A program made the position numbers and the translations under genes. The notes beneath the pieces are model-generated. The model saw nothing but the letters and a program-made list of their open reading frames with translations, was not told the origin of the DNA and made no database searches. This document shows, piece by piece, positions 4,183 to 42,420 of a DNA stretch of 64,000 bases; the stretch's first letter is position 1; each line of letters opens with the position of its first letter. The DNA is from Shigella phage ESh22, in the sequence record ON528732, one strand, 5' to 3'.

Positions 4183-4211
4183 ATTCTAAGGGGCTTTTCA
4201 GCCCCTGTCAA
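4183..4211 (-). promoter_or_regulatory. promoter-like element with hairpin spacer: TTGACA-GGGGCUGAAAAGCCCC-TTAGAAT
   Basis: Minus-strand reading: consensus -35 TTGACA, 17-nt spacer made entirely of a GGGGCUG/CAGCCCC hairpin, -10-like TAGAAT; in the rIIA-rIIB intergenic gap about 30 nt upstream of the rIIB start. Confidence 0.45.
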
Positions 4212-9075: not shown

Positions 9076-9957
9076 TTACTCAATGTTTGCTACAGTTACT
9101 TGTGAGAACTGATTCAGACCACGGTCTTCAGCATCCCCTAGCGAGTTTGTAGTGTAGATATGGTCAATGCCATTGTCAAGAAGATTTTCAACACCTTTTG
9201 AGAAAATCCCATGAGTTACATAAAGTTCTACACGGCTTGCACCAGCTTCACGAAGATGTTTTGCAGCTTCTACAAAGGTACGACCACCATCACAGATATC
9301 ATCGAGAATCATGACAGCTTTACCAGTTAAGTCTACATCATCAAGGATTCGCATACCAGTGATTTCACCAGTTTTCAGATTACGAATCTTAGCCATTGTG
9401 ATATATGGCTTATCAACCTCTTTAGCAGCCTCTTCAGTCTTCTTGGCTGCACCTGCATCTGGAGCCACTAAGAAATCAATACGTGGGTCACTTGCAAAGT
9501 GTACTGCTGCTTCTTTCTGGGGCAGGTTATGGAAGCACTTAAACAAGTTCTCTGCTACGTTGCTGTGAGTATCTAAAGCACATACTGCATCAAACTCCAT
9601 AGCATTTACCAGATTTGCAAAGACTTTCAATGCTGCTGCATCACCTTTAAACATGTGACGGTCATAACGAGCATTTGGTAAGAAGCCAAATACAGCAGTC
9701 TTCATAGTTGATTTCTGAGGAATTAGTTTGTCAATAGCTTCTTTCGCCAGAGCTAAAGCAAACAGAGTATCTTTGTCGTAACCCTGTACAGTGAGGATTA
9801 CATTCTCAATCTGGGAAGCATTCTGTTCAGCATAGGCTACTAGGTCTTCTGAGAAGTTACCACCAATTTCTCCAGACGGAAACTGGATAATGTTGAACTC
9901 TTCTTGGTGAGCACCTTTTTTACGTGAGTGTAACAGTACACTAATAATAGTTTTCAT
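9076..9957 (-). CDS. ribose-phosphate pyrophosphokinase (Prs)-family protein; PRPP synthetase or ADP-ribose pyrophosphate synthetase-like
   Basis: 293 aa; 'FPSGE', 'FGFLPNARYDR', 'LDTHS' and the PRPP-binding loop 'VMILDDICDGGRTF' follow the Prs pattern; immediately upstream of the NAMPT-like gene. Confidence 0.75.
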   Translation of the reverse strand: MKTIISVLLHSRKKGAHQEEFNIIQFPSGEIGGNFSEDLVAYAEQNASQIENVILTVQGYDKDTLFALALAKEAIDKLIPQKSTMKTAVFGFLPNARYDRHMFKGDAAALKVFANLVNAMEFDAVCALDTHSNVAENLFKCFHNLPQKEAAVHFASDPRIDFLVAPDAGAAKKTEEAAKEVDKPYITMAKIRNLKTGEITGMRILDDVDLTGKAVMILDDICDGGRTFVEAAKHLREAGASRVELYVTHGIFSKGVENLLDNGIDHIYTTNSLGDAEDRGLNQFSQVTVANIE

Positions 9958-27462: not shown

Positions 27463-28266
27463 TTAGTGAATCTGGTTAGAGTCCAGTTTTTCTTTTTCAG
27501 AGATAGCCTGAAGAGTCTCAACAAACTCATCACCGAAGTGGATAGCAATTTTCTCTTGGAGTACTGCTGCACCAGTCTGCATAATGACTTCGCGTAGTGC
27601 TTCACCACTTACATCACCAGCAATCTGTTCAACAAACTCGATAGGTGCATCAATCAGTTGAGCGACTTCAAACAGAGCGTGGATACCCATTACAGTGATG
27701 ATTGATGGGACCAATGCGGTAAGTTTAACCTGAATCTCATCAAGTCCATGTTCAGCTTCACGCGCAACAACCTCTTTAAGTTGCTCACTAGTAAGGGCCA
27801 CCATCTCCAGCACTCGCTCAAAGATATCTACGAATCCCCAATCAAGTTGTTCATAGCGTGGAAGTTTATCTTGAACACGCTTCTCAAGAACAGCCATAAC
27901 ACTTGCAATTGAGTTGATAATCAGTTCAAAGGTAGCATCTTCAGAGAAGTTAAGGATTCCTTCTTTCTCTTCCTCAGAAAGAACTTTGAAGTCACCAGTC
28001 TGCATGTTGTCAAAGATATAACCAGCAAAGGCATCTACACCAACCGCTACAGATGCCAGAGCTAGTTTACGGTCACTTAGAAGGAGTTTAACTTGCGAGC
28101 GAAACGATGACTCATCAGAGATATCTCCATTAACCTGATATGATTCAGGCATTACCTTGGAACTAAATGTGTTGCTACGCATTACAATAGCAAGACTTTC
28201 AATTGTATTGAGCATAAAGTTGCTATCAATACCTTTTGAGGACAGCATTTCATTTACAGTAGTCAT
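27463..28266 (-). CDS. hypothetical protein (267 aa)
   Basis: ORF track; first or second gene of the minus-strand transcription unit leaving the divergent region. Confidence 0.5.
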   Translation of the reverse strand: MTTVNEMLSSKGIDSNFMLNTIESLAIVMRSNTFSSKVMPESYQVNGDISDESSFRSQVKLLLSDRKLALASVAVGVDAFAGYIFDNMQTGDFKVLSEEEKEGILNFSEDATFELIINSIASVMAVLEKRVQDKLPRYEQLDWGFVDIFERVLEMVALTSEQLKEVVAREAEHGLDEIQVKLTALVPSIITVMGIHALFEVAQLIDAPIEFVEQIAGDVSGEALREVIMQTGAAVLQEKIAIHFGDEFVETLQAISEKEKLDSNQIH

Positions 28267-28267
28267 A

Positions 28268-28690
28268 TTAATTCTCTCTTATTTTGTTAATAGTTAGTCG
28301 TGATAATCTTAAGCTTTCTTGTGAAGAGAAGTCAAGTCCTTTTTCAGACCTTGGGAAGTAATTCCTGTCCCATGTATTCTCTGCATCCTGAAGCAGTTGT
28401 GATAGACTATCTAAATCCGTTCCATTTTGCAACTTATTTTTTAAGGTATCTATCAAAAAGATAGTATCTTTTGCTTTACGTCTTTCTGAAGATATCTCTT
28501 TCATGTGCTCAAAGACTGAACACTTCATCTTATCGTCGTACCCTTCTGACAACTCTATCTCATGCTGCACATCAACCATACGTCGATGATGGAAAGCATA
28601 TTCCTTCTGTGCTTCTAAGTCAAGCCTTTCAAGTTTCTCTAAAGCATCAATGAAGTTTTGTATATCTGGGTGAATGTACATCCTCTGCAT
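28268..28690 (-). CDS. hypothetical protein (140 aa)
   Basis: ORF track. Confidence 0.5.
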   Translation of the reverse strand: MQRMYIHPDIQNFIDALEKLERLDLEAQKEYAFHHRRMVDVQHEIELSEGYDDKMKCSVFEHMKEISSERRKAKDTIFLIDTLKNKLQNGTDLDSLSQLLQDAENTWDRNYFPRSEKGLDFSSQESLRLSRLTINKIREN

Positions 28691-28949
28691 AATTGCCTCT
28701 ACTAAGTTTCTATAAAGATTTTAATCTCTTATCTTTACGTATTCTATACGTATAACTTTAAAGCTTTTAAAAGACTATTAAAAATCTTTTAAGGGTTTTA
28801 AAGAATCTGTATAGTTAACCTGTAAAGAGAGTCTATTAAGATAAAACCCACTCCGCAAAGATTAACACCTTGTCAAGTGCTTTGTCAACTTGCTTTTTCA
28901 TAAAAATTGGAGTAGGGTATTAAGCAGTATGATTTGAGAGGGAGTTAAA
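28691..28949. promoter_or_regulatory. divergent intergenic control region (259 nt, AT-rich) between the minus-strand early block and the plus-strand polymerase block
   Basis: Strand switch; two TTGTCAA direct repeats 10 nt apart (TTGACA on the minus strand), several TTTAAAG repeats; GAGGGAG RBS before the polymerase ATG. Confidence 0.45.
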
Positions 28950-31649
28950 ATGAACAATGTAGATTTTGAGAACTTACATTTGGTTGGTGATACAGAAACT
29001 GACGGGTTGCTGCTTGAGTTTACAAAAGCTCACGTTATGGCATTCGCAGATTACAAAGATGATAGTGATGAACCTGCTGTGTGGGTTTTCACTGATGAGC
29101 CTATCCTTGGTCACAAGTATACAAAATACATCAAAGGTGGTTTGCGTGAAGGTGTGGAGTTTGCATTGAAAGCCAAACGCCTTTGTATCCACAATGGTCT
29201 TGGTTATGACTGGTGGGTGTTCAACCATATTGCACCTGACCTGTGGAACTTTGATAATCCTAAGTGTAAACCTTGGAGTGACTTCTTTCAGGATTCACTT
29301 ATCCAATCTCGTGTGCAGTGGATGGATAGACCTACACCAAAAGGCTACAAGGGTGCTCATGGCTTGGCTGCATGGGGTGCTCGTGTCGGTGTTCGTAAAC
29401 CAGAGATTGAAGAGTGGGGTGTGTGGAACGCTGATATTCTTAACCGTGTTGTTGAGGATATTCGAATCAACGCCAAAGCAAAACGTGCTATGGATAATGA
29501 ATACCTTAAGCTTAAGAAGTGTGGTGTAGATACTTACGAAACCTACATGCGAGCTAAAGAGACTTCTTTCTGGATGAGTCAACAAGCTATTAATGGTTGG
29601 AAAGCTAACATTGACCTTATGAAGTCCTGTGTAGAAGAACTGGATAAGATGACTTCTGAGTTAGCCTCTGAAGTTGAACCGTTCCTACCTCCGACTATTA
29701 AGACGAAAGGTAAAGTAACTGGTGAAGAGTTTGCCAAGGCATGGAATGAGTATGTTGAAACATTTGGTCATGTAGATGGTTTGAAACGTATCACAAAGTA
29801 TCCAAAGACAAAGTATCGTGAGCAGATGCGTGAAGGGGAACTGAAGACGTACCCTATCAAGCCATATGGGAAACCAACTACAAAGATTTTCAACATTGAG
29901 AAACGTAATTGCTACACTCCAACTAACACTGTCACTGGCGAAGAGTACAGGGAAGGTTTTGTAGCAATGAAAGATGCTCGTGCAATCTGCAATGAGTTGA
30001 ATGCTAAGGTTGGCAAGAAGTGTAAGGATTGGAAGCCAGTTAAGACAGTTAAAACTGTGAAGTACTACAATAACCACGTAGTAAATCACTTTGAAATGGA
30101 GTCAAGCCGTTACACAGGTCTTGTTGATGCACCTTATACACCAATTGAGTTTGAAGTTTCACGTATGACTCAAGTTGCAGTGGTGAAGGAATACTTGAAA
30201 TCTGTTGGCTGGATTCCTGATGATTGGAACTACAAAAAGGATTCTGATAACCGTCCAATCAAGGTATGCCGCTTCAAAGATAATAAGAAGATGATTCGTA
30301 AACATCCTAAGTGGGATGAGATGGTTGAACGTTGTGGATTGAACTACATTGAGCATGAAGGGGTTCATTACATTGAGTATAACTGGTCTGTTAGGAAGTA
30401 CACAGATTTGCTTGAGCCTTGCTTGATTCGTACTTCACCTAAACTTACTGAATCTTCTTATGACACCATTGAAGGTGAACTTGGACAAAAGATTGCGAAG
30501 TACTATACTTTGATGCACCGACGTAGAACTATTGAGAACTCAAAAGATGACGAGAAAGGTTGGTTAAACCAGATTCGTCCAGATGGTCGCTTGAGTGCTG
30601 GTGCAATGGTGTTTGGTACTTCAACTGGTCGTATGACACAGTATGGTATTGTGAACGTACCTTCTGGGGCTGCTGTTTACGGGGAACCAATGAGGGCAGT
30701 CTGGATTTGTGAAGAAGGAACCAACGTAGTATCCGTTGATATGAACTCTGCACAGCTTGTGTTACTGTGTAACTTTATGGGTGATAAAGAGTTCACCAAA
30801 GCAGTAACAGAAGGTAAGGAAGAAATTGAGTTTATTCGTCAAGAAGATGGTCGCTATTACTGCAAACACTTCGACGAATACCTTAACCCAGAAGTTGACA
30901 AGTATCTGCGTTATGACTCTGAAAACGACTTGTACGTAGTCTATTCAGGCACTGATGCTCACACACTGAACAGTATTTACTTCAGCTTGAATGATGAGCA
31001 GGATATCTTGACTTGTCGTATGACTCAGGATGAGAATCTTCTCCATGAGATTAGTAAGGGTCGTAAGAAAGCTAAGAACGGTATCTATGCACTGCTGTTC
31101 GGTGCGGGTGATGAGAAGTTTGCTAAGACCATCAAAGCTTCAACTACTCAAGAAGGTGCATTGACTAAGCAGACTTACTTTGTTCGTTTGCCGAAGATTA
31201 AGAAACTGATTGATAACTTAGAAGCTGACTTTAAAGCAACTAAGAAAGCTCTTGAAGAGGTCTTTGGTAAAACTGCTGCAATTGCTAAAGGTGGATTTGT
31301 TCAGGTTGCTGGGGCGTGGTTGTGGTGTAAATCTCCACACAAACTCTTGAACTATCTGTTGATGGGTTCAGAAGCACAAGTTCAGAATGAAGCAATCAAC
31401 CTTGCTTGTCGTCGTATGATTGATGAAGGTTTGATGAAACTAAATGGTCGTAAGCCAGCTATCGGTGCTCGTTTACTTTGTGCTTACCACGACGAAACAA
31501 GCTGGGAATGTCCAGAAAGCATGACAGCAGAAGTTAAGGCAGTAACTGACTGGTATTATGGTCAAGCTTCTAAAAACTTGGGACTGAAGAAGGATACTTT
31601 GGTAACGGGTACTGGTAAGGTTGGTAAATCGTGGCTTGAAGTCCACTAA
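28950..31649 (+). CDS. DNA polymerase, family A (Pol I-like) with 3'-5' exonuclease domain
   Basis: 899 aa; Exo I 'GDTETDGL'; polymerase motif A 'VVSVDMNSAQLVLL', motif B 'RKKAKNGIYALLFGAG', motif C 'YHDE'. Confidence 0.85.
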   Translation: MNNVDFENLHLVGDTETDGLLLEFTKAHVMAFADYKDDSDEPAVWVFTDEPILGHKYTKYIKGGLREGVEFALKAKRLCIHNGLGYDWWVFNHIAPDLWNFDNPKCKPWSDFFQDSLIQSRVQWMDRPTPKGYKGAHGLAAWGARVGVRKPEIEEWGVWNADILNRVVEDIRINAKAKRAMDNEYLKLKKCGVDTYETYMRAKETSFWMSQQAINGWKANIDLMKSCVEELDKMTSELASEVEPFLPPTIKTKGKVTGEEFAKAWNEYVETFGHVDGLKRITKYPKTKYREQMREGELKTYPIKPYGKPTTKIFNIEKRNCYTPTNTVTGEEYREGFVAMKDARAICNELNAKVGKKCKDWKPVKTVKTVKYYNNHVVNHFEMESSRYTGLVDAPYTPIEFEVSRMTQVAVVKEYLKSVGWIPDDWNYKKDSDNRPIKVCRFKDNKKMIRKHPKWDEMVERCGLNYIEHEGVHYIEYNWSVRKYTDLLEPCLIRTSPKLTESSYDTIEGELGQKIAKYYTLMHRRRTIENSKDDEKGWLNQIRPDGRLSAGAMVFGTSTGRMTQYGIVNVPSGAAVYGEPMRAVWICEEGTNVVSVDMNSAQLVLLCNFMGDKEFTKAVTEGKEEIEFIRQEDGRYYCKHFDEYLNPEVDKYLRYDSENDLYVVYSGTDAHTLNSIYFSLNDEQDILTCRMTQDENLLHEISKGRKKAKNGIYALLFGAGDEKFAKTIKASTTQEGALTKQTYFVRLPKIKKLIDNLEADFKATKKALEEVFGKTAAIAKGGFVQVAGAWLWCKSPHKLLNYLLMGSEAQVQNEAINLACRRMIDEGLMKLNGRKPAIGARLLCAYHDETSWECPESMTAEVKAVTDWYYGQASKNLGLKKDTLVTGTGKVGKSWLEVH

Positions 31650-31710
31650 TAGTGTTGACAAGGTGCTCATGGAAGAGTACCATATACTCTATATTGTATA
31701 GGAGACTTGT

Positions 31711-31911
31711 ATGACTATTTCAGAAATTGAAGTTCAACTGCAATGTGCTGGATATTCTCAAAGTGAGATTGAGGCTATGTGCATCATCATTTGCAGTAGC
31801 CATAAGCACCTCAAGCTTTCTAATGAAAATCTTTTCAAGGTTGATATTTTTATCGCTGGGGGCAAGATTATCAAGGATAAGACAGGCTACCTTAAAGGTG
31901 AACGTCTATGA
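31711..31911 (+). CDS. hypothetical protein (66 aa)
   Basis: ORF track; AGGAGA RBS. Confidence 0.45.
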   Translation: MTISEIEVQLQCAGYSQSEIEAMCIIICSSHKHLKLSNENLFKVDIFIAGGKIIKDKTGYLKGERL

Positions 31912-32120
31912 GCCACCGTGGAAGAACCCATCTCGCCATGATGCAAGGTGCTTCAAAAGATACTATCAAGAATCGGAAGAAAACTCTTTTTGACAGAATG
32001 AATAGACTCATTGATAATGCGAGCCTACCTAACTCTGAAAAGGTTTTCTTGAAAGGGAATCTGAAGAGTATTGCACAGGAACTTATTGACATTGAATTTT
32101 GGAGAAATCAAAATGAGTAA
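31908..32120 (+). CDS. hypothetical protein (70 aa)
   Basis: ORF track; ATGA start/stop overlap with the upstream gene. Confidence 0.45.
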   Translation: MSHRGRTHLAMMQGASKDTIKNRKKTLFDRMNRLIDNASLPNSEKVFLKGNLKSIAQELIDIEFWRNQNE

Positions 32121-32361
32121 AGAGCAAGAAGCAATAGATATCTTTAAAAATGACGATAAGTCAATAGCTTATATCTCAGAAGCTTGGTGCAGAGGGCTAG
32201 GTTATGACTGGTATCTTTTCCTATGTGCTAAAAAGGATGTTAAACCAGTTGATGAAACCAGATTCAAAGAACTGTATAATATCTGTCAAGAAGGTTATGA
32301 AGAACATTACGAAGGTTCTTTGAATCCTGTAAATTCAAAAGCTTCAGATTTATTTTATTGA
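32113..32361 (+). CDS. hypothetical protein (82 aa)
   Basis: ORF 32071..32361 trimmed to the ATG at 32113 (MSKEQEA) with GGAGAAA RBS. Confidence 0.45.
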   Translation: MSKEQEAIDIFKNDDKSIAYISEAWCRGLGYDWYLFLCAKKDVKPVDETRFKELYNICQEGYEEHYEGSLNPVNSKASDLFY

Positions 32362-32371
32362 GAGGTTTGAA

Positions 32372-32617
32372 ATGTTAAAATTATTGATACCAGCTTTAGT
32401 AGTCCTACTGGTTGGATGTAACCCTTCTTATGAGAATAAGGATGCTTCTTACAGACTTCCTCCAGAAATGCAAGACTGCAAGATTTATAAACTTAATGGT
32501 GATGCCATTAGCAGGGATGTTATTGTAGTTCGCTGCCCAAATTCTCAGACTACAACTTCTTACAAGTATGGAAAGAATAGTCAGTCACACACCACAGTTT
32601 TTGATGGAGGATATTGA
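32372..32617 (+). CDS. small lipoprotein (81 aa)
   Basis: Signal peptide with lipobox 'LLVG-C'; GAGAGG RBS. Confidence 0.5.
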   Translation: MLKLLIPALVVLLVGCNPSYENKDASYRLPPEMQDCKIYKLNGDAISRDVIVVRCPNSQTTTSYKYGKNSQSHTTVFDGGY

Positions 32618-32618
32618 T

Positions 32619-32825
32619 ATGCAGGTTCTGGTAAACTTTATCTATAAGTATGAAAACATCTTCAGCACTATGACTGAAGGTCAACGCAATCCAGTTATCC
32701 CACGAGAAGGGGAGACTGTTGAGATTAATGATTGGAACCACAGAGTTGCAGAGGTCAAGCATAAACTTAAAGATGATTATGACCACCAAGTTGTAAATGT
32801 GTATTTAGAAGGTAAGTGGCAATGA
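32619..32825 (+). CDS. hypothetical protein (68 aa)
   Basis: ORF 32568..32825 trimmed to the ATG at 32619 (MQVLVNF) with GGAGGA RBS. Confidence 0.4.
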   Translation: MQVLVNFIYKYENIFSTMTEGQRNPVIPREGETVEINDWNHRVAEVKHKLKDDYDHQVVNVYLEGKWQ

Positions 32826-32916
32826 GAATCTTACATATCATCTCTGAAGATTTTGGAGGGTGCTCTTGGCACTCATTTTTCACAAAAGGTTGTCTAGCTT
32901 GTGAGGCACGTAATAA

Positions 32917-34017
32917 ATGACAATTCTGTACAAACAAAATAAAGATGGTTCTTTCAACGTCTGGTCATGTGTTGCTGTAGGTGATAAAGTCGTCACAACT
33001 TATGGTAAAGAAAATGGCAAGATGATGTTTGAAGAGTACACAGCAGAATCTAAGAACATCGGTAAGAAGAATGAGCGTAATGCTGAACAGCAAGCTCTCT
33101 TTGAAGTTTCTGCAAAGTACAAGAAGCAAGTAGACCGTAAAGGTTATGCTTACACAAAGTCTGAAGCAGAGAACGTTGAAAAGGTTGGTGTACAGCTTGC
33201 TCACGATGCTGTAAAGATTAGTCACGCAAAATACCTGAAGTTCCCTGCTGACGCTCAACCTAAACTTGATGGTGTTCGTTGCAGGATTTCAAGAGATGTT
33301 GATACAGTAAGCTTCACGGCTTATTCTCGTGAAAACACTGTTTATAATGTACCAGCAGAGCTAATCCCAGATTTGTTCCTAATGCTGAAGTGTCACCCAC
33401 AAGTTGAAGATTTTGATGGTGAGATTTACGCTCATGGTTGGGACTTAGAGGATATTGTATCCATGATTAAGAATACTGACAATCCAGACCGTCACCTTCT
33501 TAAGTTCTACTGGTATGATATCTGTGATAATACCAAGACTTGGCCTGAGCGTCGTGAAGTTATTGACAATTCACCTCTTGTTGAACTTGGTGAAGCTTGC
33601 AGGGTTGTTCCTGTACAGACTATCCGTGTTAATTCTTGGGAAGAGTTCGACAAAGCACATGATAATTGGGTTAAGCTGAAGTTTGAAGGGGCAATGTACC
33701 GTTCAATCTCCCCAGAATCCTTCTATGAGTGTGGTCACCGTTCTTACTTCCTGATTAAACACAAGAAGATGCACACTCAGGAGTTTAAAGTCACTGGTGT
33801 GAAGACTGACAAACGGGGTCATGGTAAGTTCGTTGTAGAGACTCTTCCTAACGTCTTTGTAGATGTTTCATGGAAAACTACCCATGAGAAGAAGAAGTAT
33901 CTTGCTGAACATCCTGAAGAGTTTATCGGTAAACCTCTGACGGTTCAGTTCCAGAAGATGACTCGTAAGGGGTCTTTACAGTTCCCTGTTGGGCTTGTTA
34001 TTAGAGATTATGAGTGA
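32917..34017 (+). CDS. ATP-dependent DNA ligase
   Basis: 366 aa; adenylation motif I 'KLDGVRC' (KxDGxR); size similar to T7-type ligase. Confidence 0.7.
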   Translation: MTILYKQNKDGSFNVWSCVAVGDKVVTTYGKENGKMMFEEYTAESKNIGKKNERNAEQQALFEVSAKYKKQVDRKGYAYTKSEAENVEKVGVQLAHDAVKISHAKYLKFPADAQPKLDGVRCRISRDVDTVSFTAYSRENTVYNVPAELIPDLFLMLKCHPQVEDFDGEIYAHGWDLEDIVSMIKNTDNPDRHLLKFYWYDICDNTKTWPERREVIDNSPLVELGEACRVVPVQTIRVNSWEEFDKAHDNWVKLKFEGAMYRSISPESFYECGHRSYFLIKHKKMHTQEFKVTGVKTDKRGHGKFVVETLPNVFVDVSWKTTHEKKKYLAEHPEEFIGKPLTVQFQKMTRKGSLQFPVGLVIRDYE

Positions 34018-34174
34018 TTACACTATGGGGATTGCAATTGCAGTAGTGATTATCGGTATCTTATTTTTCTCTTGGTTATACATGTAGAAAGTTGTTGACA
34101 TGAGATTCTTAGTGGGTATACTAGCAATATACAAGATATTATATAGGAACCCACTAGTTAGTTTGGAGGTAATT

Positions 34175-34555
34175 ATGAAAAAGCTTGCACTATGTCTCTT
34201 TGCAGTACTAAGCTTCAATGCTTATGCGGTTATGCCAAATATGGACTACGGTAAAGTTAAACTGGAGTCTTGTGAGCTTTCTCAAAAGATTGTTTCTAAG
34301 TCTGGAGAGTTAACTAAACCAATCACTCAAGAAACTTTTCAGGAAATGACAGACCGTACAACTGACCTCATCTACCACACTATGGGTGGTTACTACAACG
34401 ATGTGGCTGATATGATGGTTTCTGAGAATATTGATGTGCTAAGTTCTGAACAGATTTCTGAAACTAAAGCTGTAGAAGAACGTGTTACACAGTCTGTTTT
34501 AGATGGGTTTGAGTACTTTATCATTAACCGTCACTGCATGGGTCTGCCACAATGA
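34175..34555 (+). CDS. secreted/periplasmic hypothetical protein (126 aa)
   Basis: ORF 34100..34555 trimmed to the ATG at 34175 with GGAGGT RBS; signal peptide MKKLALCLFAVLSFNAYA. Confidence 0.45.
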   Translation: MKKLALCLFAVLSFNAYAVMPNMDYGKVKLESCELSQKIVSKSGELTKPITQETFQEMTDRTTDLIYHTMGGYYNDVADMMVSENIDVLSSEQISETKAVEERVTQSVLDGFEYFIINRHCMGLPQ

Positions 34556-34755
34556 AAAAGAACATCTGTAGAATCGACTATGGTGAAGTTGTTGACGACG
34601 ATGGAGTAGTTATTTACAGAGTTTGGGCTAAGGATTTTAATACAGTTGTAGAGGCTCTAGACCACTTCGTCAACGGGACTCGTGAGAATGTAAGAGCAAC
34701 CAGTATAGATTCCTTAATAGACACTTCGCGTAAACGGAGGAAGAAGGATGAATAA
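34552..34755 (+). CDS. hypothetical protein (67 aa), basic C-terminus
   Basis: ORF track; ATGA overlap. Confidence 0.4.
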   Translation: MKKNICRIDYGEVVDDDGVVIYRVWAKDFNTVVEALDHFVNGTRENVRATSIDSLIDTSRKRRKKDE

Positions 34756-35047
34756 AGTCTTCGACCCTTATGCACCCCAAGATGATTGGGAAGCTGATAG
34801 AGAGTCTGAAATGGAAGCATACATAGCTGGAATGGATGTGGATGAGATGAAGTTCTATATCTCTGAGAAACTACACATTCACATGAAAAGAAACAATCTA
34901 TCACAAGTTCAGGTAGCAAAGATTTGTGAGATTTCTCAAGCAAGAGTTTCAAACATCTTAAACGGTAGCGGTAAAGTTTCTCTTGACTACATGATTAGTG
35001 TTTGTGATAAACTTGGTTTAAACTTCAACTTAAGTAAGGCAGATTGA
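34748..35047 (+). CDS. helix-turn-helix DNA-binding protein (XRE/Cro-like HTH)
   Basis: 99 aa; 'LSQVQVAKICEISQARVSNILNG' matches the HTH_XRE pattern. Confidence 0.5.
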   Translation: MNKVFDPYAPQDDWEADRESEMEAYIAGMDVDEMKFYISEKLHIHMKRNNLSQVQVAKICEISQARVSNILNGSGKVSLDYMISVCDKLGLNFNLSKAD

Positions 35048-35049
35048 TT

Positions 35050-35409
35050 ATGAAACGTAAGAATGCAATTTTCAACGACAACTTTGCACTTGGTTTCTAC
35101 GGGAAACCGACGAGTGCTGAGAAGTCATTTGGTGAAGAACTCTTGGGAGTCCTGAAGCAGATGTATCAAGAAGGAAGAATCAAGCATACTGAGAAGAGGC
35201 GTATTGCTGGTTATATGACAATTGGCTCCGCTATCTCTAACATTAAGCTTGAGACAACTTGTGCTCATGATGTTCGTAACAAGTTCATCAAAGAACTGGT
35301 TGGCAATATTGATGGTGTATCTGTTAAGGCTATCTGGCTAAATGTTGATGGGACTAACTACACCACGTTCACCTTTAAAAATGAGGATATTAAATGTCTC
35401 TTCCCGTAA
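35050..35409 (+). CDS. hypothetical protein (119 aa)
   Basis: ORF 35044..35409 trimmed to the first ATG. Confidence 0.45.
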   Translation: MKRKNAIFNDNFALGFYGKPTSAEKSFGEELLGVLKQMYQEGRIKHTEKRRIAGYMTIGSAISNIKLETTCAHDVRNKFIKELVGNIDGVSVKAIWLNVDGTNYTTFTFKNEDIKCLFP

Positions 35410-35897
35410 AACTGAACTTGTACTTTGGATACAATGTATTACAAGATTGTATTCTAAGCCTCCCTAAATCAGATTATCGTGCTGATTTAGGTTCTGTGAA
35501 ACGTGCTGCTCACTTCAACAACGTGATTTTTGGTCTCCAGAGTCTTTATCGTTGGCTTGAAGAAGACGGTCGCCTTAACGAGTACCTTCATAACCTAAAG
35601 ATTGCCAGAGAGAAAGGTCAAATGGGTTATGAGCTTCTTCCAAGACTCTACAAAGTTGGTAGTGTTAGTGAGCAACGTTGGAATGAGCAAGCTGTTGAGA
35701 GCTATAAGAGAGCCAATATAACTATTGGTACAAGAGCTTGGAAGGAATATGACGCTCTGCGTGAAATTATCTATCAAACAGTTGGTAAGAGAGTCTCTCA
35801 AGGTCTTTCTTATGACCAAAAGATTGACTGGAAGACTCAGAAGTGTATAAAATTCTTCAAGTTTGATAATGACAAAAACACCTTTGTAGAGGTATGA
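35394..35897 (+). CDS. hypothetical protein (167 aa)
   Basis: ORF track. Confidence 0.45.
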   Translation: MSLPVKLNLYFGYNVLQDCILSLPKSDYRADLGSVKRAAHFNNVIFGLQSLYRWLEEDGRLNEYLHNLKIAREKGQMGYELLPRLYKVGSVSEQRWNEQAVESYKRANITIGTRAWKEYDALREIIYQTVGKRVSQGLSYDQKIDWKTQKCIKFFKFDNDKNTFVEV

Positions 35898-35898
35898 C

Positions 35899-36420
35899 AT
35901 GCAAAAGATTGGAATCAACTTACTGCTCCCAGAAGCATCAATGTTGAGAGGTATTATCACCACTCACCTTGAAACCAAAAAGTCACAAGAAGGTGAAATA
36001 CTGATTAAAACAAACTATGATGCAGGAACTATTGAGTTGGTTGATGAAGATACTGGGGACTCACTTTGTATTCTTCCTGCTCATCTGTTCGCAACTGAGT
36101 TCAGAGATGCTAAATCAATCTCTGTAAAGACTGAAGCAAGCATTGACTTGTATGAAGGGACTCAGTACCCTAAATCCTTCAAAGCTCTTTTGAACATCTT
36201 CATAGATGATATCAGAGAGGTTGTGAAGCCATACATAGGCCGACATGTAGTTAACGCAACCTGTGAAAACAATTATTACATTCGCTTAGTAGGTGACTTA
36301 GGTTCTATGGACTTCCTAAGCTTTATACCCAAGCACTTTGAAGATTTCTTATCAAGTGAGTGTGATGATTTAGACTTCGTAGTTGATATCCAGCAAACTT
36401 TTAAGGTAAACAAAAAATGA
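35899..36420 (+). CDS. hypothetical protein (173 aa)
   Basis: ORF track. Confidence 0.45.
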   Translation: MQKIGINLLLPEASMLRGIITTHLETKKSQEGEILIKTNYDAGTIELVDEDTGDSLCILPAHLFATEFRDAKSISVKTEASIDLYEGTQYPKSFKALLNIFIDDIREVVKPYIGRHVVNATCENNYYIRLVGDLGSMDFLSFIPKHFEDFLSSECDDLDFVVDIQQTFKVNKK

Positions 36421-36689
36421 AACTTTTTGAGAAGTTTGAGCAATGCTACAACCAAGATGGTGAACCTCTAAAATGCCCCCATTGTGGGGGTACAAATTTC
36501 CAAGGTGAGATTACAGAGATTGTGGCAGGGAACGTAGCAGAAGAGTACACACGTTGCACTGATTGTGACAACATCATCTCTTTCTGGGCTTATGGCAGTT
36601 ATCAACCACAACCACGCTTAGTATTCCATCCAGTAAAAACTGTGAAGAATATTGCTAACTGGTTTATTGTAAAAGGGTTCACACAATGA
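36417..36689 (+). CDS. small zinc-ribbon protein (90 aa)
   Basis: CPHCGG ... CTDCD Cys4 arrangement. Confidence 0.45.
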   Translation: MKLFEKFEQCYNQDGEPLKCPHCGGTNFQGEITEIVAGNVAEEYTRCTDCDNIISFWAYGSYQPQPRLVFHPVKTVKNIANWFIVKGFTQ

Positions 36690-37231
36690 TTAAATTGGTT
36701 TTTGCAAACGGTCTTAACGGGGAGTTTGGTTGCCCCTCTGGTATGCCTTGGCCTCGTAATAAGCAAGATATGCAAGAGTTCAAGAGGATTACTACAGGTC
36801 AATTGGTAGTTATGGGTAATGACACTTTCAAGAGTCTTGGAAGTAAACCTTTACCAGACCGTGATAATCTTGTTCTGACAAACTCATTACCGTATGAAGG
36901 TATAGATTTTGGTAGAGAAGATGTAATGTTTGCTAAGGTTCACCCAGACGCTTTTGGGGCATTCTTAAAACATCTGGATAGTAGTATTGAGCAAGATGTT
37001 TGTATAATTGGTGGAGCAGGTATTCTTATCCAAGCTTTACCATATGCAGATGCAATTTGTCAAACATATATCCGTGAAGTGACTGAAGAAGCAACTGTTA
37101 AGCTGCCTTATAAGGGTTTCTTTGAGCACTTGTATGACGAGTCAACTTTTGCTAGAATACAGTCAAAACCGTCGAAAGATGACAGCGTTGTATTCAACAT
37201 TTATGTTCCACAAGTAAGAGGACGTTTCTAA
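36686..37231 (+). CDS. frd: dihydrofolate reductase
   Basis: 181 aa; N-terminal 'MIKLVFANGLNGEFGCPSGMPW' DHFR signature; immediately upstream of thymidylate synthase. Confidence 0.8.
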   Translation: MIKLVFANGLNGEFGCPSGMPWPRNKQDMQEFKRITTGQLVVMGNDTFKSLGSKPLPDRDNLVLTNSLPYEGIDFGREDVMFAKVHPDAFGAFLKHLDSSIEQDVCIIGGAGILIQALPYADAICQTYIREVTEEATVKLPYKGFFEHLYDESTFARIQSKPSKDDSVVFNIYVPQVRGRF

Positions 37232-37232
37232 T

Positions 37233-38132
37233 ATGTCACAAGCAGATGTAAGCTACAAAGGGATTCTCAACCATGTTCTTTCTGTTGGTGAAGAACGTAA
37301 AACCAGAACTGGAAAGGTTATTACAACGTTTGCACCTCCAGAGTTTCGTTTTGACATGCGTAGTGGTTTCCCATTAATTACTTCAAAGCAAACCTTCATG
37401 CGTCAAGTTTTAGGTGAAGCATTGTGGTTTTTGAATGGTGAAAACAAGTTGGGTGATTTACGCTACAGAACTTGGGGAGAGAACGATGGAGAGCGTTGGA
37501 CTATCTGGACAGATGATTTTGAACGTTGGTTAAAGACAACCTATGCAACTGAAAATGATTGGTTGGAAGACGCAGGTGGGCGAATCTATGGTGTCCAATG
37601 GAGGTCTTTTGAGGGGCATGGTGGGGTTGTCGTTGACCAGTTGAGTAATCTTGTGGATAAGATGAAAAAGTCTCCTACAGACCGTTACATGCTGGTTAAC
37701 GCATGGAATGCAGCAGATATCTCAAGCAACTCTATGGCATTAGCACCTTGTCATGTTCTTTTCCAGATTTATATCTCGAATACTGGAGAGGTTGACTTGA
37801 AATGGTATCAACGTTCATGTGATACGTTCTTAGGTTTACCATTTAACATTGCTTCTTATGGGTTTATCTTGCAAGTTCTTTGTAAGATGACAGGATTAAC
37901 TCCACGTTATCTTGTTGGTACTTTTGGTGATACCCAGATTTATCTGAACCATATGCAGCAAGTTTATCAGTTGTTAGGTAACGAAGATTACCCAGCACCT
38001 AAGTTTGAGATTGATGTTGAGTTAAACAGTATTGATGACCTGAAGCACTTAACAGCAAGTGACTTTATAGGTGGTTTGAAAGATTACCGACATGCTGGTA
38101 AGATTGAAGCTCCCTTGTCAGTAGGTAAGTAG
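37233..38132 (+). CDS. td: thymidylate synthase
   Basis: 299 aa; active-site region 'LAPCHVLFQIY' with catalytic Cys; uninterrupted ORF (no intron). Confidence 0.85.
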   Translation: MSQADVSYKGILNHVLSVGEERKTRTGKVITTFAPPEFRFDMRSGFPLITSKQTFMRQVLGEALWFLNGENKLGDLRYRTWGENDGERWTIWTDDFERWLKTTYATENDWLEDAGGRIYGVQWRSFEGHGGVVVDQLSNLVDKMKKSPTDRYMLVNAWNAADISSNSMALAPCHVLFQIYISNTGEVDLKWYQRSCDTFLGLPFNIASYGFILQVLCKMTGLTPRYLVGTFGDTQIYLNHMQQVYQLLGNEDYPAPKFEIDVELNSIDDLKHLTASDFIGGLKDYRHAGKIEAPLSVGK

Positions 38133-38168: not shown

Positions 38169-38543
38169 TTATTTCTTTTTAACATTCTGTGTATTTTGTT
38201 CGGTAATTGCTTGTAAAGCTGATACAGACTGTGCTAAGTTGTTCACACTATCTGAGAATTTATCAAGGGTTTTGGTCAACTTAGCGTTTTCCCCTTTAAC
38301 GTTCTCTAACTGCACTTTCTGGTTTTCCATCCCTAACTGAAGGAGTTTCATATCAGACTGTAAATCACGAATAGCTGAATAGTTACCTTTTGAGTAACCA
38401 TCCAACTGTTGTAACTTTGTGTTGATAGAAACTTCTTGCTTTCCATCAGAGACCTGCATCGTAGTGTACATACCAATTACACTGAAAATACCTACAACAA
38501 TTGCGCCAATGTTGTTCTTAAAAGCCTCTTCAATCCACTTCAT
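38169..38543 (-). CDS. membrane protein with N-terminal TM helix and coiled-coil periplasmic domain (124 aa); lysis-related candidate
   Basis: TM 'IGAIVVGIFSVIGMYTTM' then heptad-rich charged sequence; directly follows a small membrane protein, downstream of the tail-fibre genes. Confidence 0.4.
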   Translation of the reverse strand: MKWIEEAFKNNIGAIVVGIFSVIGMYTTMQVSDGKQEVSINTKLQQLDGYSKGNYSAIRDLQSDMKLLQLGMENQKVQLENVKGENAKLTKTLDKFSDSVNNLAQSVSALQAITEQNTQNVKKK

Positions 38544-41244: not shown

Positions 41245-42420
41245 TTACGCAGTTCTCTTCCAAACATATACAACATAAGAAGGTTGCTCAATATTAAATG
41301 CTTGTCCAGCACCAAATGCACCAGTTGTGCCTGAGTGAGTGTGTTCAGAAGATTGAACTGTCACAGTACCAGAGTGTCCATGCGAACCAATTACAACACT
41401 GTGTCCATGTGCTCCAATATACACACTGTGAGAGTGGTTACCACCAACTGAAGAGTTAACGTTGAATGTATGTGTATGAACCCCATCAAAGTCTGTATAT
41501 GACGCATTACCAATACCTGCATCAGCCGATGCTGTGATAGCGTTCACACCACCCCTGTCAGAACCCCTCAATGGAATCCTGTGGCTGTGACTACCAGCAC
41601 TGCTTACAGAACCATTAACGTTATGAGCGTGGCTTCCAGAGTCATTTGTGGCCTTAGAATCATAATCAAAACTTGATGTGTTCCTAATCCCATAGTCAAA
41701 GCTAGAAATTACTACTGTTGCATTATGAGAGTGCCCACCACCAGTTAGCAACACAGAGTGTGTGTGACTTGGAATGTTATTTTGTGTAAGTGTTGCAGTA
41801 GCAGAACCAAATACTGATTCTACAGGTCTTGTATCTGTGTCATAACCAACAAGAGACCTTCCTTTAGAAACTAACTCCCAAGTACCACCACAAAGTAAAT
41901 ATGTAGTTGGGTTCGCAGGGTTAACTGATAAATGAATAGTACCAATTGGATAGCTATCCTGAATAGCTCTGTATAAAGCATTCACAGCTTTTGCAGTAGC
42001 ATACTTATCAGCATCTTCAGAATAAGAGTTTGAATATGTCCAGTTTTGGATATTAGACAAACCTACTTGAATCTTGTTGGTGTTGTGAGGATTATTCTTG
42101 TCATTAATGTGGTTCTGGATAAGAGTATTGACTTCATCACTTGATAGAATATTAAGATTCTGTCTAGCCTCTTCAACACTGACCACATCTGACAAGTTAT
42201 TAGCAGCCACTAATTGGAGTGCGTTAACAACATTCCCAAGGTCTACGTGAACCTTTGTAACACCGTGTGGGTTATTTCTCAAAGATGCGTGTGGAGCAAG
42301 TAATTGCTCAAGTGTGCATCGCCTATCCTCAATACCTTGCTTAAGGTGAAAGATATCACTTAAATCAATAGGTAATGAGGCTTGAGGTAATGCACTAATT
42401 TGAATTTCACCGACTGCCAT
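41245..42420 (-). CDS. tail fibre / receptor-binding protein with dense HxH repeats
   Basis: 391 aa; 'GGGHSHNATV', 'GSHAHNVNG', 'GSHSHRIP', 'VHTHTFNVN', 'GNHSHSVYIGAHGHSVVIGSHGHSG', 'EHTHSG'; C-terminus '...YVVYVWKRTA'. Confidence 0.7.
   Translation of the reverse strand: MAVGEIQISALPQASLPIDLSDIFHLKQGIEDRRCTLEQLLAPHASLRNNPHGVTKVHVDLGNVVNALQLVAANNLSDVVSVEEARQNLNILSSDEVNTLIQNHINDKNNPHNTNKIQVGLSNIQNWTYSNSYSEDADKYATAKAVNALYRAIQDSYPIGTIHLSVNPANPTTYLLCGGTWELVSKGRSLVGYDTDTRPVESVFGSATATLTQNNIPSHTHSVLLTGGGHSHNATVVISSFDYGIRNTSSFDYDSKATNDSGSHAHNVNGSVSSAGSHSHRIPLRGSDRGGVNAITASADAGIGNASYTDFDGVHTHTFNVNSSVGGNHSHSVYIGAHGHSVVIGSHGHSGTVTVQSSEHTHSGTTGAFGAGQAFNIEQPSYVVYVWKRTA

Follow-up and report, generated by a model that had tools for sequence, protein, structure and literature searches.

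The gap between two divergent gene blocks of Shigella phage ESh22 was analyzed in a stretch of 64,000 nucleotides from its sequence record (ON528732), called here the window. The gap occupies exactly positions 28691-28949 (259 nt): a leftward open reading frame (ORF; 28268-28690) starts at 28690 and a rightward one, of 899 aa, starts at 28950, in agreement with the boundaries and length given in a preliminary description of the same DNA. Among ORFs of at least 100 aa, the minus strand is the coding one as far as 28690 and again from 38169, while the stretch 28950-38132 is a plus-strand island. This bears out the claim that the spacer holds the only switch to the plus strand in the window, and agrees with the annotation of Shigella phage ESh21. 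A 4.3-kb segment around the spacer is 99.9% identical to ESh21 (ON528731, Ounavirinae, Mooglevirus) and 78-88% identical to some 290 Felix O1-like phages; by sequence, the window is that of a Felix O1-like myophage, within the Ounavirinae.

According to the ESh21 annotation, the genes to the right of the gap encode DNA polymerase, ligase, dihydrofolate reductase and thymidylate synthase, while a 140-aa hypothetical gene, a second hypothetical gene and the genes for deoxynucleoside monophosphate (dNMP) kinase and primase/helicase lie to the left. The arrangement of hypothetical gene, gap and DNA polymerase gene was found in all Ounavirinae examined, including SUSP1, Felix O1, Moogle and ASO1A. 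The spacer is the counterpart of the gap between genes 96 and 97 of Felix O1, a homologous locus flanked by the same genes and 80% identical in the spacer itself. Whichard et al. 2010 (PMC3185647) assumed that early promoters diverge from that gap, but recognized no host-promoter-like sequence in it; transcripts of ORFs 96 and 97 were present by 5 min and reached their maximum at 25 min, as timed by reverse transcription-PCR (PMC3185647). The spacer is best explained, in our judgement and with moderate confidence, as a control region in which two host sigma-70 promoters would stand back to back, the leftward one (P_L) being followed by a transcribed, structured leader and the rightward one (P_R) serving the polymerase gene.

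The G+C content of the spacer is 0.293, against about 0.395 in the flanking genes, so that its description as AT-rich holds. The spacer is present in 258 phage records. In an alignment of five genomes (the window, Felix O1, ASO1A, Moogle and SUSP1) its core, 28752-28899, is 85-91% identical between genera, compared with 83-87% for the polymerase gene and 57-85% for the two leftward genes, and such identity in non-coding DNA indicates that the core is under selection. Promoters and hairpins were compared in a set made up of 26 distinct spacers, of two divergent relatives from metagenomes, L037 and L038, whose ORF97 is only 59-60% identical, and of Erwinia phage phiEa104. Searches of metagenomes and IMG/VR added little diversity besides L032, L037, L038 and L051. 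A word search for copies of spacer blocks elsewhere in the window returned noise only, and the spacer contains no tRNA. Small ORFs within it (20-26 aa) were rejected, as they are not conserved and carry indels in relatives.

Candidate promoters of the two divergent units

Two copies of TTGTCAA are found in the spacer, at 28870-28876 and 28882-28888. They had been described as 10 nt apart; the pair is present, with a distance of 12 nt from start to start and 5 nt between the copies. Read on the minus strand, the pair becomes TTGACA-N6-TTGACA, i.e. tandem sigma-70 -35 consensus hexamers. The repeats are therefore read as tandem -35 hexamers of a leftward promoter rather than as a feature of the plus strand. 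Exact TGTCAA-N6-TGTCAA is unique within the window, and six occurrences are counted with at most one mismatch, against 0.93 +/- 1.0 expected. With 40 copies against 22.3 +/- 4.8 expected, TTGTCAA is itself enriched in the window; most copies read TTGACAA in the sense direction of genes, which suggests that the phage uses many host-type -35 boxes. Over the genome, two TTGACA hexamers with up to one mismatch each, separated by N6 and followed by N4-6 and TAnnnT, occur 6 times against 0.56 +/- 0.75 expected; these sites include the promoter of the tRNA cluster and that of the other divergent gap of the genome (P41, described below).

In the predicted leftward promoter the upstream hexamer (28888-28883, minus strand; the second TTGTCAA as numbered on the plus strand), detected by a position weight matrix (PWM) scan, would act as the -35 box. 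It is followed after 18 nt by an extended -10 element, TGT plus TAATCT (28867-28859, hexamer 28864-28859, minus strand), identified by the same scan and by conservation. Transcription would start at about 28852 and run leftward, first over a leader of about 160 nt and then into the ORF97 homologue and the replication genes that follow it. The elements of P_L are those of sigma-70 promoters, namely a -35 hexamer near TTGACA and a TAnnnT hexamer 16-18 bp apart, with an optional TGn, and its PWM score is 11.9, a value reached by just 9 plus-strand start positions in the window.

The 26 spacers, L037, L038 and phiEa104 all have the upstream TTGACA unchanged; in phiEa104 it is the sole copy kept, only one TGTCAA being present. 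Variation in the -10 hexamer is confined to positions 3-5: it is TAATCT here, and identical in L037 and L038, but TAGTCT in Moogle and L032 and TACATT, with equal spacing, in phiEa104. The TG is kept throughout the comparison except in phiEa104, where a TG directly abuts the -10 hexamer. The second TTGACA (28871-28876, minus strand; the first TTGTCAA) falls within the P_L spacer, spanning -23 to -18. None of the Felix-, Moogle- and SUSP-type spacers compared departs from it, nor do L037 and L038, and it is also found at P41. No -10 partner at 16-18 nt was detected for it by sequence inspection and PWM scan. In the record of Escherichia phage vB_EcoM_ASO1A (MZ726791) the same upstream TTGACA is annotated, by pattern matching, as the -35 box of a minus-strand promoter, but is paired there with GTTAAT at 16 nt, unlike in P_L. 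Two other candidates, TTGCGG-17-TAGACT on the minus strand and TAGAAT-17-TAAAAT, were rejected because they are not conserved.

The predicted rightward promoter, P_R (28890-28918, plus strand), is weak and consists of TTGCTT at 28890-28895, a 17-nt spacer and TAGGGT at 28913-28918; it would start at about 28925, giving the DNA polymerase gene a short leader. TTGCTT is invariant. The spacer drifts in sequence, its length being fixed at 17 (16 in one sequence), and the -10 hexamer, found as TAGGGT, TAATGT, TAAGGT or TAATTT, always keeps T1, A2 and T6, with further drift from there to the ribosome-binding site. A single base separates the -35 boxes of P_L and P_R, and some 73 bp separate their predicted starts, so that the two would form a back-to-back divergent pair. 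In both, the positions critical for a promoter are kept while the spacers and -10 positions 3-5 vary, and from this conservation we infer that transcription starts at the predicted sites. The divergent early promoters proposed in the preliminary description are thus supported by comparison between phages, the rightward one being recognizable only by its conservation pattern.

Other elements considered around P_R were discarded. TATGAT at 28928 is not conserved. TATAGT at 28810, part of a plus-strand promoter annotated in ASO1A (TTAAGA-N15-TATAGT), falls inside the hairpin described below and is not conserved in L037 and L038. A polymerase operator hairpin at the TTGTCAA pair was ruled out because the plus-strand fold of 28822-28960, taken as a 5' leader of the polymerase, is no better than that of shuffled sequences (z 0.02). 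CAAGT...ACTTG followed by CTTTTT, evaluated as a terminator or attenuator, forms a stem of 5 bp only, broken in one sequence. A T4 MotA box has an unfit spacing (15 nt vs 11-13), and the T4 late-promoter motif TATAAATA occurs only in a one-mismatch form, at a site which is not conserved.

Similar sites were observed elsewhere. At 9151-9191 (minus strand), TTGAAA-N6-TTGACA-N6-TTGACC, phased at 12 nt, is followed by TACACT 17 nt from the middle hexamer; the tandem layout is that of 28871-28888, yet the site lies within a coding region. At 4183-4211 (minus strand), the spacer of a promoter-like TTGACA-17-TAGAAT (score 14.9) is itself a GC-rich hairpin (ggggctgaaaagcccct), so that a terminator and a promoter appear to overlap in 29 nt. 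The 19-base pattern TTGACA-N6-TTGACAA-NN-TGTAG-NN-T matches six viral contigs from outside the Ounavirinae, including the IMG/VR sequences L062, L063, L065, L068 and L075. L068 and L063 carry genes resembling those of T4-like pelagiphages and cyanophages, the flanks of the L068 site resembling UvsW and gp55, and the promoter-like stretch of L068 shares 14 of 21 unconstrained positions with the P41 promoter of VpaE1. Such matches could reflect either a shared early-promoter architecture or chance.

The predicted structured leader and a paralogous module

Repeated TTTAAAG units had also been described in the spacer. Two exact copies exist, at 28757 and 28797, whereas the remainder, loosely included under the same name, are one-letter variants: TATAAAG at 28711, TTTAAAAG at 28766, TTTTAAG at 28787 and TGTAAAG at 28821. 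They are not promoter elements. The TTTAAAG units are palindromes of the CTTTAAAG type, and TTTAAAG/CTTTAAAG units are contained in an imperfect palindrome of about 93 nt (28734-28826), in which 28734-28739 pairs with 28821-28826, 28744-28750 with 28808-28814 and 28756-28774 with 28786-28803. The entire dyad lies downstream of P_L, within the leader of about 160 nt and within the AT-rich core of the spacer, and this region would therefore be the transcribed leader of P_L, folding into a long hairpin, rather than promoter DNA.

RNA folding of 28725-28835 gave -30.9 kcal/mol (z -5.2) for the plus strand and -25.4 kcal/mol (z -3.7) for the minus strand. In the alignment of 26 sequences, 99.3% of the 688 cells corresponding to the 30 proposed pairs hold standard pairs, and two pairs are changed on both sides, from T-A to A-T in the Felix group and from C-G to T-A in the Moogle group. 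The covariation score was reached by 0 of 500 shuffles, while the count of covarying pairs was matched by 174 of 500. In L037 and L038 the long hairpin is kept despite a largely different sequence (-30.3 and -25.2 kcal/mol; z -5.9 and -4.3).

A second module of the same kind is located outside the window. The genome's other divergent gap, inspected in ESh21, is the counterpart of that between genes 40 and 41 of Felix O1 and is referred to as P41. Its promoter, TTGACAAGGGGATTGACAAG, again shows the 12-nt period, with TAGTGT 17 nt after the upstream hexamer. Both TTGACA hexamers are invariant in four genera, the 6-nt linker varies (AGGGGA, TTCCTC, AATGAC, AAGTAC) and the -10 element is TAGnnT. 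An AT-rich leader follows, 87-90% identical across genera, which folds into a long hairpin of about 99 nt. Global alignment of the P_L and P41 promoter-leader modules scored 100, against 70.6 +/- 5.9 for shuffled sequences (0 of 300 reaching the observed value). A 45-nt block, the leader box (28799-28843, minus strand; about +10 to +55 of the P_L transcript), is 76% identical to the P41 leader at equal offset; the local alignment of this box (45-46 nt) scored 33, against 18.7 +/- 2.9 for shuffles, 2 of 500 of which reach it. The motif TTAA[AT]AGACTCT[CT] occurs exactly only in the leaders of P_L and P41 within the 86.4-kb genome. In the P41 hairpin, one pair is found as U-A and C-G with U-G as intermediate, and another as A-U and G-U, a substitution pattern that fits selection on the transcribed (sense) strand.

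In the orientation of the window the two modules are directed leftward, each at the head of one of the two longest units, of about 36 kb and 31 kb (Felix O1 genes 97-131/1-23 and 41-79), and both units contain intrinsic terminators. One of these, at 27446-27425 (minus strand; AAGCCTCCTTAATTGGGGGCTT plus a T-run), lies 1.4 kb downstream of P_L, between the gene for a 267-aa protein and the dNMP kinase gene; it is annotated likewise in ASO1A and Moogle, and more terminators are found further on. Unless read through, it would stop P_L transcripts after two genes.

Some further features were noted at the second gap. It also has a strong leftward promoter, TTGACT-17-TACCAT, with a score of 12.2 (L053:17671-17849, ESh21 41670-41848); a coding sequence of 34 aa annotated at L053 17566-17670 overlaps this promoter and may be spurious. 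The record of Salmonella phage Si3 (NC_041922.1) begins inside the P41 leader, approximately at the predicted transcript start, and the rest of the match lies elsewhere in the record; this start may be arbitrary or may be a physical genome end.

The hairpin of the P_L leader would act at the RNA level, in processing by RNase III or RNA stability, in the control of ORF97 translation or in terminator read-through. Early leaders of phages are known to contain hairpins processed by RNase III, such as T7 R0.3 and the leader of lambda N. Like these, the P_L leader contains a long imperfect hairpin with internal loops, located downstream of a predicted early promoter and ahead of the first ribosome-binding site; unlike them, its stem is very AT-rich and the antisense strand folds better, and cleavage is here only a candidate function.

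Several observations weigh against the proposed promoter pair and leader. P_L has a suboptimal 18-nt spacer, and its -10 hexamer matches at 3 of 6 positions. The PWM score of P_R, 6.7, equals background, about 257 plus-strand start positions in the window being as high, so that the support for P_R is purely comparative. A simple consensus scan, which found 5 sites against 3.3 expected, lists neither promoter, and the literature searched contains no mapped transcript starts for any Ounavirinae phage. As for the hairpin, only two independent co-variation events are found at P_L, and in phiEa104 the fold is weak (z -0.2), an outer stem of about 13 bp around two CTTTAAAG palindromes remaining. In 5 of 6 lineages it is the antisense strand of P_L that forms the stabler structure, with consensus energies of -13.2 for the plus and -6.6 for the minus strand. 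Finally, compensatory changes would also be expected from a DNA palindrome bound by a dimeric protein.

The strand asymmetry raises the possibility of a hairpin functioning on the plus strand, either in a rightward antisense or leader RNA transcribed from a promoter left of 28734 or as single-stranded DNA during replication. The plus-strand fold is the stabler one in most lineages, its four invariant G.U pairs become C.A mismatches on the minus strand, the sense strand of P_L, and the same asymmetry is seen when P41 leaders are folded as single sequences. This possibility appears very improbable, however, as no sigma-70-like rightward promoter was found upstream of 28734 (best score 6.9), no T-run follows the hairpin, the substitutions in the P41 leader favour the sense strand, and the difference between strands is small when DNA energy parameters are used.

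A protein-binding site at the DNA level is suggested by a different set of data. A local palindrome, TACGTAT-TCT-ATACGTA (28736-28752), with a 7-bp stem and a 3-nt loop, offers the 5' arm of the long hairpin an alternative pairing. Two pairs of this palindrome show compensatory change (U-A to A-U in the Felix group, C-G to U-A in the Moogle group), and their columns co-vary with 28822 and 28824 as well, so that three copies of one short motif (28733-28742, 28746-28755 and 28820-28827) seem to change in concert between genera. Concerted change would suit an operator array, in which the palindromes (CTTTAAAG, TACGTAT-N3-ATACGTA, the long dyad) and/or the phased TTGACA pair bind a phage or host protein that switches the early promoters off or on. 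The CII protein of lambda, for instance, recognizes TTGC-N6-TTGC repeats placed on either side of a -35 box, and a repressor operator would be another model. The predicted promoter P_R is weak, and the TTGTCAA repeats occupy -38 to -56 relative to its start, where activators usually bind; the second TTGACA does not vary, yet has no -10 partner; and in phiEa104 CTTTAAAG and CTGT(A/T)AAG are kept although the long hairpin is not. Against an operator, the pairing of the dyad is maintained in L037 and L038 despite the replaced sequence, and one-sided changes are mostly wobble-compatible, as expected of a single-stranded structure and not of a protein site. Moreover, no candidate regulator was identified. 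The ORF97 homologue was evaluated for this role and rejected: it has no Pfam hit, its PHROG is of unknown function and only 10 relatives were found, while its AlphaFold model (predicted local distance difference test score, pLDDT, 71) shows a helical hairpin, for which neither a DNA-binding fold nor any PDB structure with E <0.2 was matched. Nor were polymerase modifiers found in Felix O1 by Whichard et al. (PMC3185647). Overall, an operator array is considered rather unlikely.

The explanation of the spacer as neutral AT-rich DNA, with repeats arising by chance from its low-complexity composition, is hardly credible. It is true that short A/T-rich words recur easily at 77% AT, that the simple promoter scan is close to expectation, and that an Rfam scan of 28500-29100, with E up to 10, returned only sub-threshold chance hits (best E-value 0.034, far below the gathering score). 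Neutrality does not account, on the other hand, for a non-coding identity between genera which exceeds that of the neighbouring leftward genes, for critical promoter positions kept while the spacers drift, for a fold z of -5.2, for the compensatory changes, or for the existence of a paralogous module.

The AT-rich core as a candidate origin

The preliminary description had also envisaged a replication-origin-like element next to the polymerase gene. The AT-rich core of the spacer, 28697-28846, is the most AT-rich (76.7% AT) and least stable 150-bp segment in the window, with a nearest-neighbour duplex energy of -163.3 kcal/mol against a mean of -192.9 +/- 6.2 (4.8 standard deviations, the next region reaching 3.4), and its energy is still the lowest at this scale after adding the remaining 23 kb of ESh21. 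By composition and duplex energy it is the best candidate DNA-unwinding element in the window. In ESh21, outside the window, about 900 nt at a convergent gene switch (L053:8178-9077, ESh21 ~32.2-33.1 kb), where all annotated ORFs are tiny, are as AT-rich and unstable as the spacer at the 100-bp scale (-106.9 vs -107.2 kcal/mol), and represent another candidate structural or replication-related element.

The P_L transcript, running into the easily melted palindrome, might form an R-loop or a primer used by the T7-like polymerase and the primase-helicase, in which case promoter and origin would coexist. P_L is conserved and would read into the low-stability segment, the spacer separates the polymerase operon from the primase/helicase operon, and TTGTC, a recognition sequence of T7-type primases, occurs twice. 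Cumulative GC skew, proposed earlier as a check, does have a local minimum in the spacer, at 28899. The turning points of the skew (minimum at 28899, maximum at 38275) coincide, however, with the switches of gene strand, and because they mirror gene orientation the skew does not discriminate. The replication proteins are T7-like (PMC3185647).

In the spacer no exact DnaA box, IHF site or Fis site was found (1-mismatch matches only), nor an iteron array, the repeats amounting to two to four short AT-rich words and one dyad. The literature searched contains no origin mapping for Ounavirinae, and, as said, the spacer is matched in instability at the 100-bp scale by another AT-rich stretch of the genome. 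The P41 module is tied by orientation and offset to its own promoter, which better fits a transcription element, although T4 is known to have several promoter-type origins. Because of this paralogous module at the other divergent gap, a regulatory promoter-leader element is favoured over a unique origin, and we regard an origin at the spacer as unlikely, though not far-fetched.

The primary origin of T7 and oriF and oriG of T4 are made up of a promoter followed by an AT-rich unwinding region. The spacer resembles them in that a predicted promoter leads into the most easily melted DNA of the genome, near genes for a T7-like polymerase and a primase-helicase. It differs in having a predicted host sigma-70 promoter, not one dependent on a phage polymerase or on MotA, and in that its AT-rich region is a conserved palindrome.

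Flanking genes and implications for early transcription

The first gene of the leftward unit (28268-28690, minus strand) encodes the 140-aa homologue of Felix O1 ORF97 (phrog_4039, function unknown), as indicated by the ORF list, by the annotations of ESh21, Felix O1 and SUSP1 and by PHROGs and Pfam scans. It is preceded by a Shine-Dalgarno sequence, AGAGG (28696-28700, minus strand), the complementary CCTCT being invariant across the 26 spacers. The DNA polymerase gene (28950-31649, plus strand) has its Shine-Dalgarno sequence, GAGAGGGAG, and its ATG within 28936-28952, as identified from sequence, alignment and annotation.

The next leftward gene (27463-28266, minus strand) encodes the 267-aa protein, to which several records and PHROGs (phrog_4251) give the name 'minor tail protein'. 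The gene is located among the early replication genes, its product has no Pfam hit, and of the genes nearby it is the least conserved, with 57% DNA identity to Felix O1; the name looks doubtful. In some relatives, genes for HNH homing endonucleases adjoin the polymerase gene (L002:7246-7773, L011:1974-2450, L037:1-65), following it in SUSP1 and lying between spacer and polymerase gene in phiEa104; the window has none. The polymerase gene of KMM2 is annotated as split ORFs.

A further, speculative proposal is that the module of tandem TTGACA and hairpin leader is a cis-acting signal for processive antitermination, heading the two longest units; we think this improbable. In lambda (nutL and nutR) and HK022 (putL and putR), promoter-proximal leader elements lie downstream of both divergent early promoters. 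Similarly, in the genome considered here a related structured leader element is found at a fixed short distance downstream of two predicted early promoters, each of which heads a long terminator-containing unit (30-36 kb). The differences are several: there is no similarity to boxA or boxB and no Rfam match, a single hairpin of about 93 nt replaces the two stem-loops of put, and both modules point the same way in the genome instead of diverging from one region. Unlike in lambda, no N-like protein is known here, and antitermination is only a proposal. If true, it would explain how terminators are read through without a phage RNA polymerase or a known polymerase modifier, a question left by the 2010 paper.

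Divergent promoters in this gap are thus already anticipated in the literature. What is new is the assignment of the promoters at the base level, the reinterpretation of the repeats, the hairpin and the paralogous module; the literature searched contains no description of the tandem hexamers, of the hairpin or of the P41 module in Ounavirinae.

Felix O1-like phages are widely used in typing and biocontrol. The analysis provides base-level predictions for the promoters of both sets of replication genes, in a gap where the reference genome paper found none, and links the spacer to the paralogous module heading the structural-gene unit. These predictions, if confirmed, would supply defined early promoters for phage engineering and a handle on the role of the leader, be it in read-through, RNA processing or the initiation of replication.

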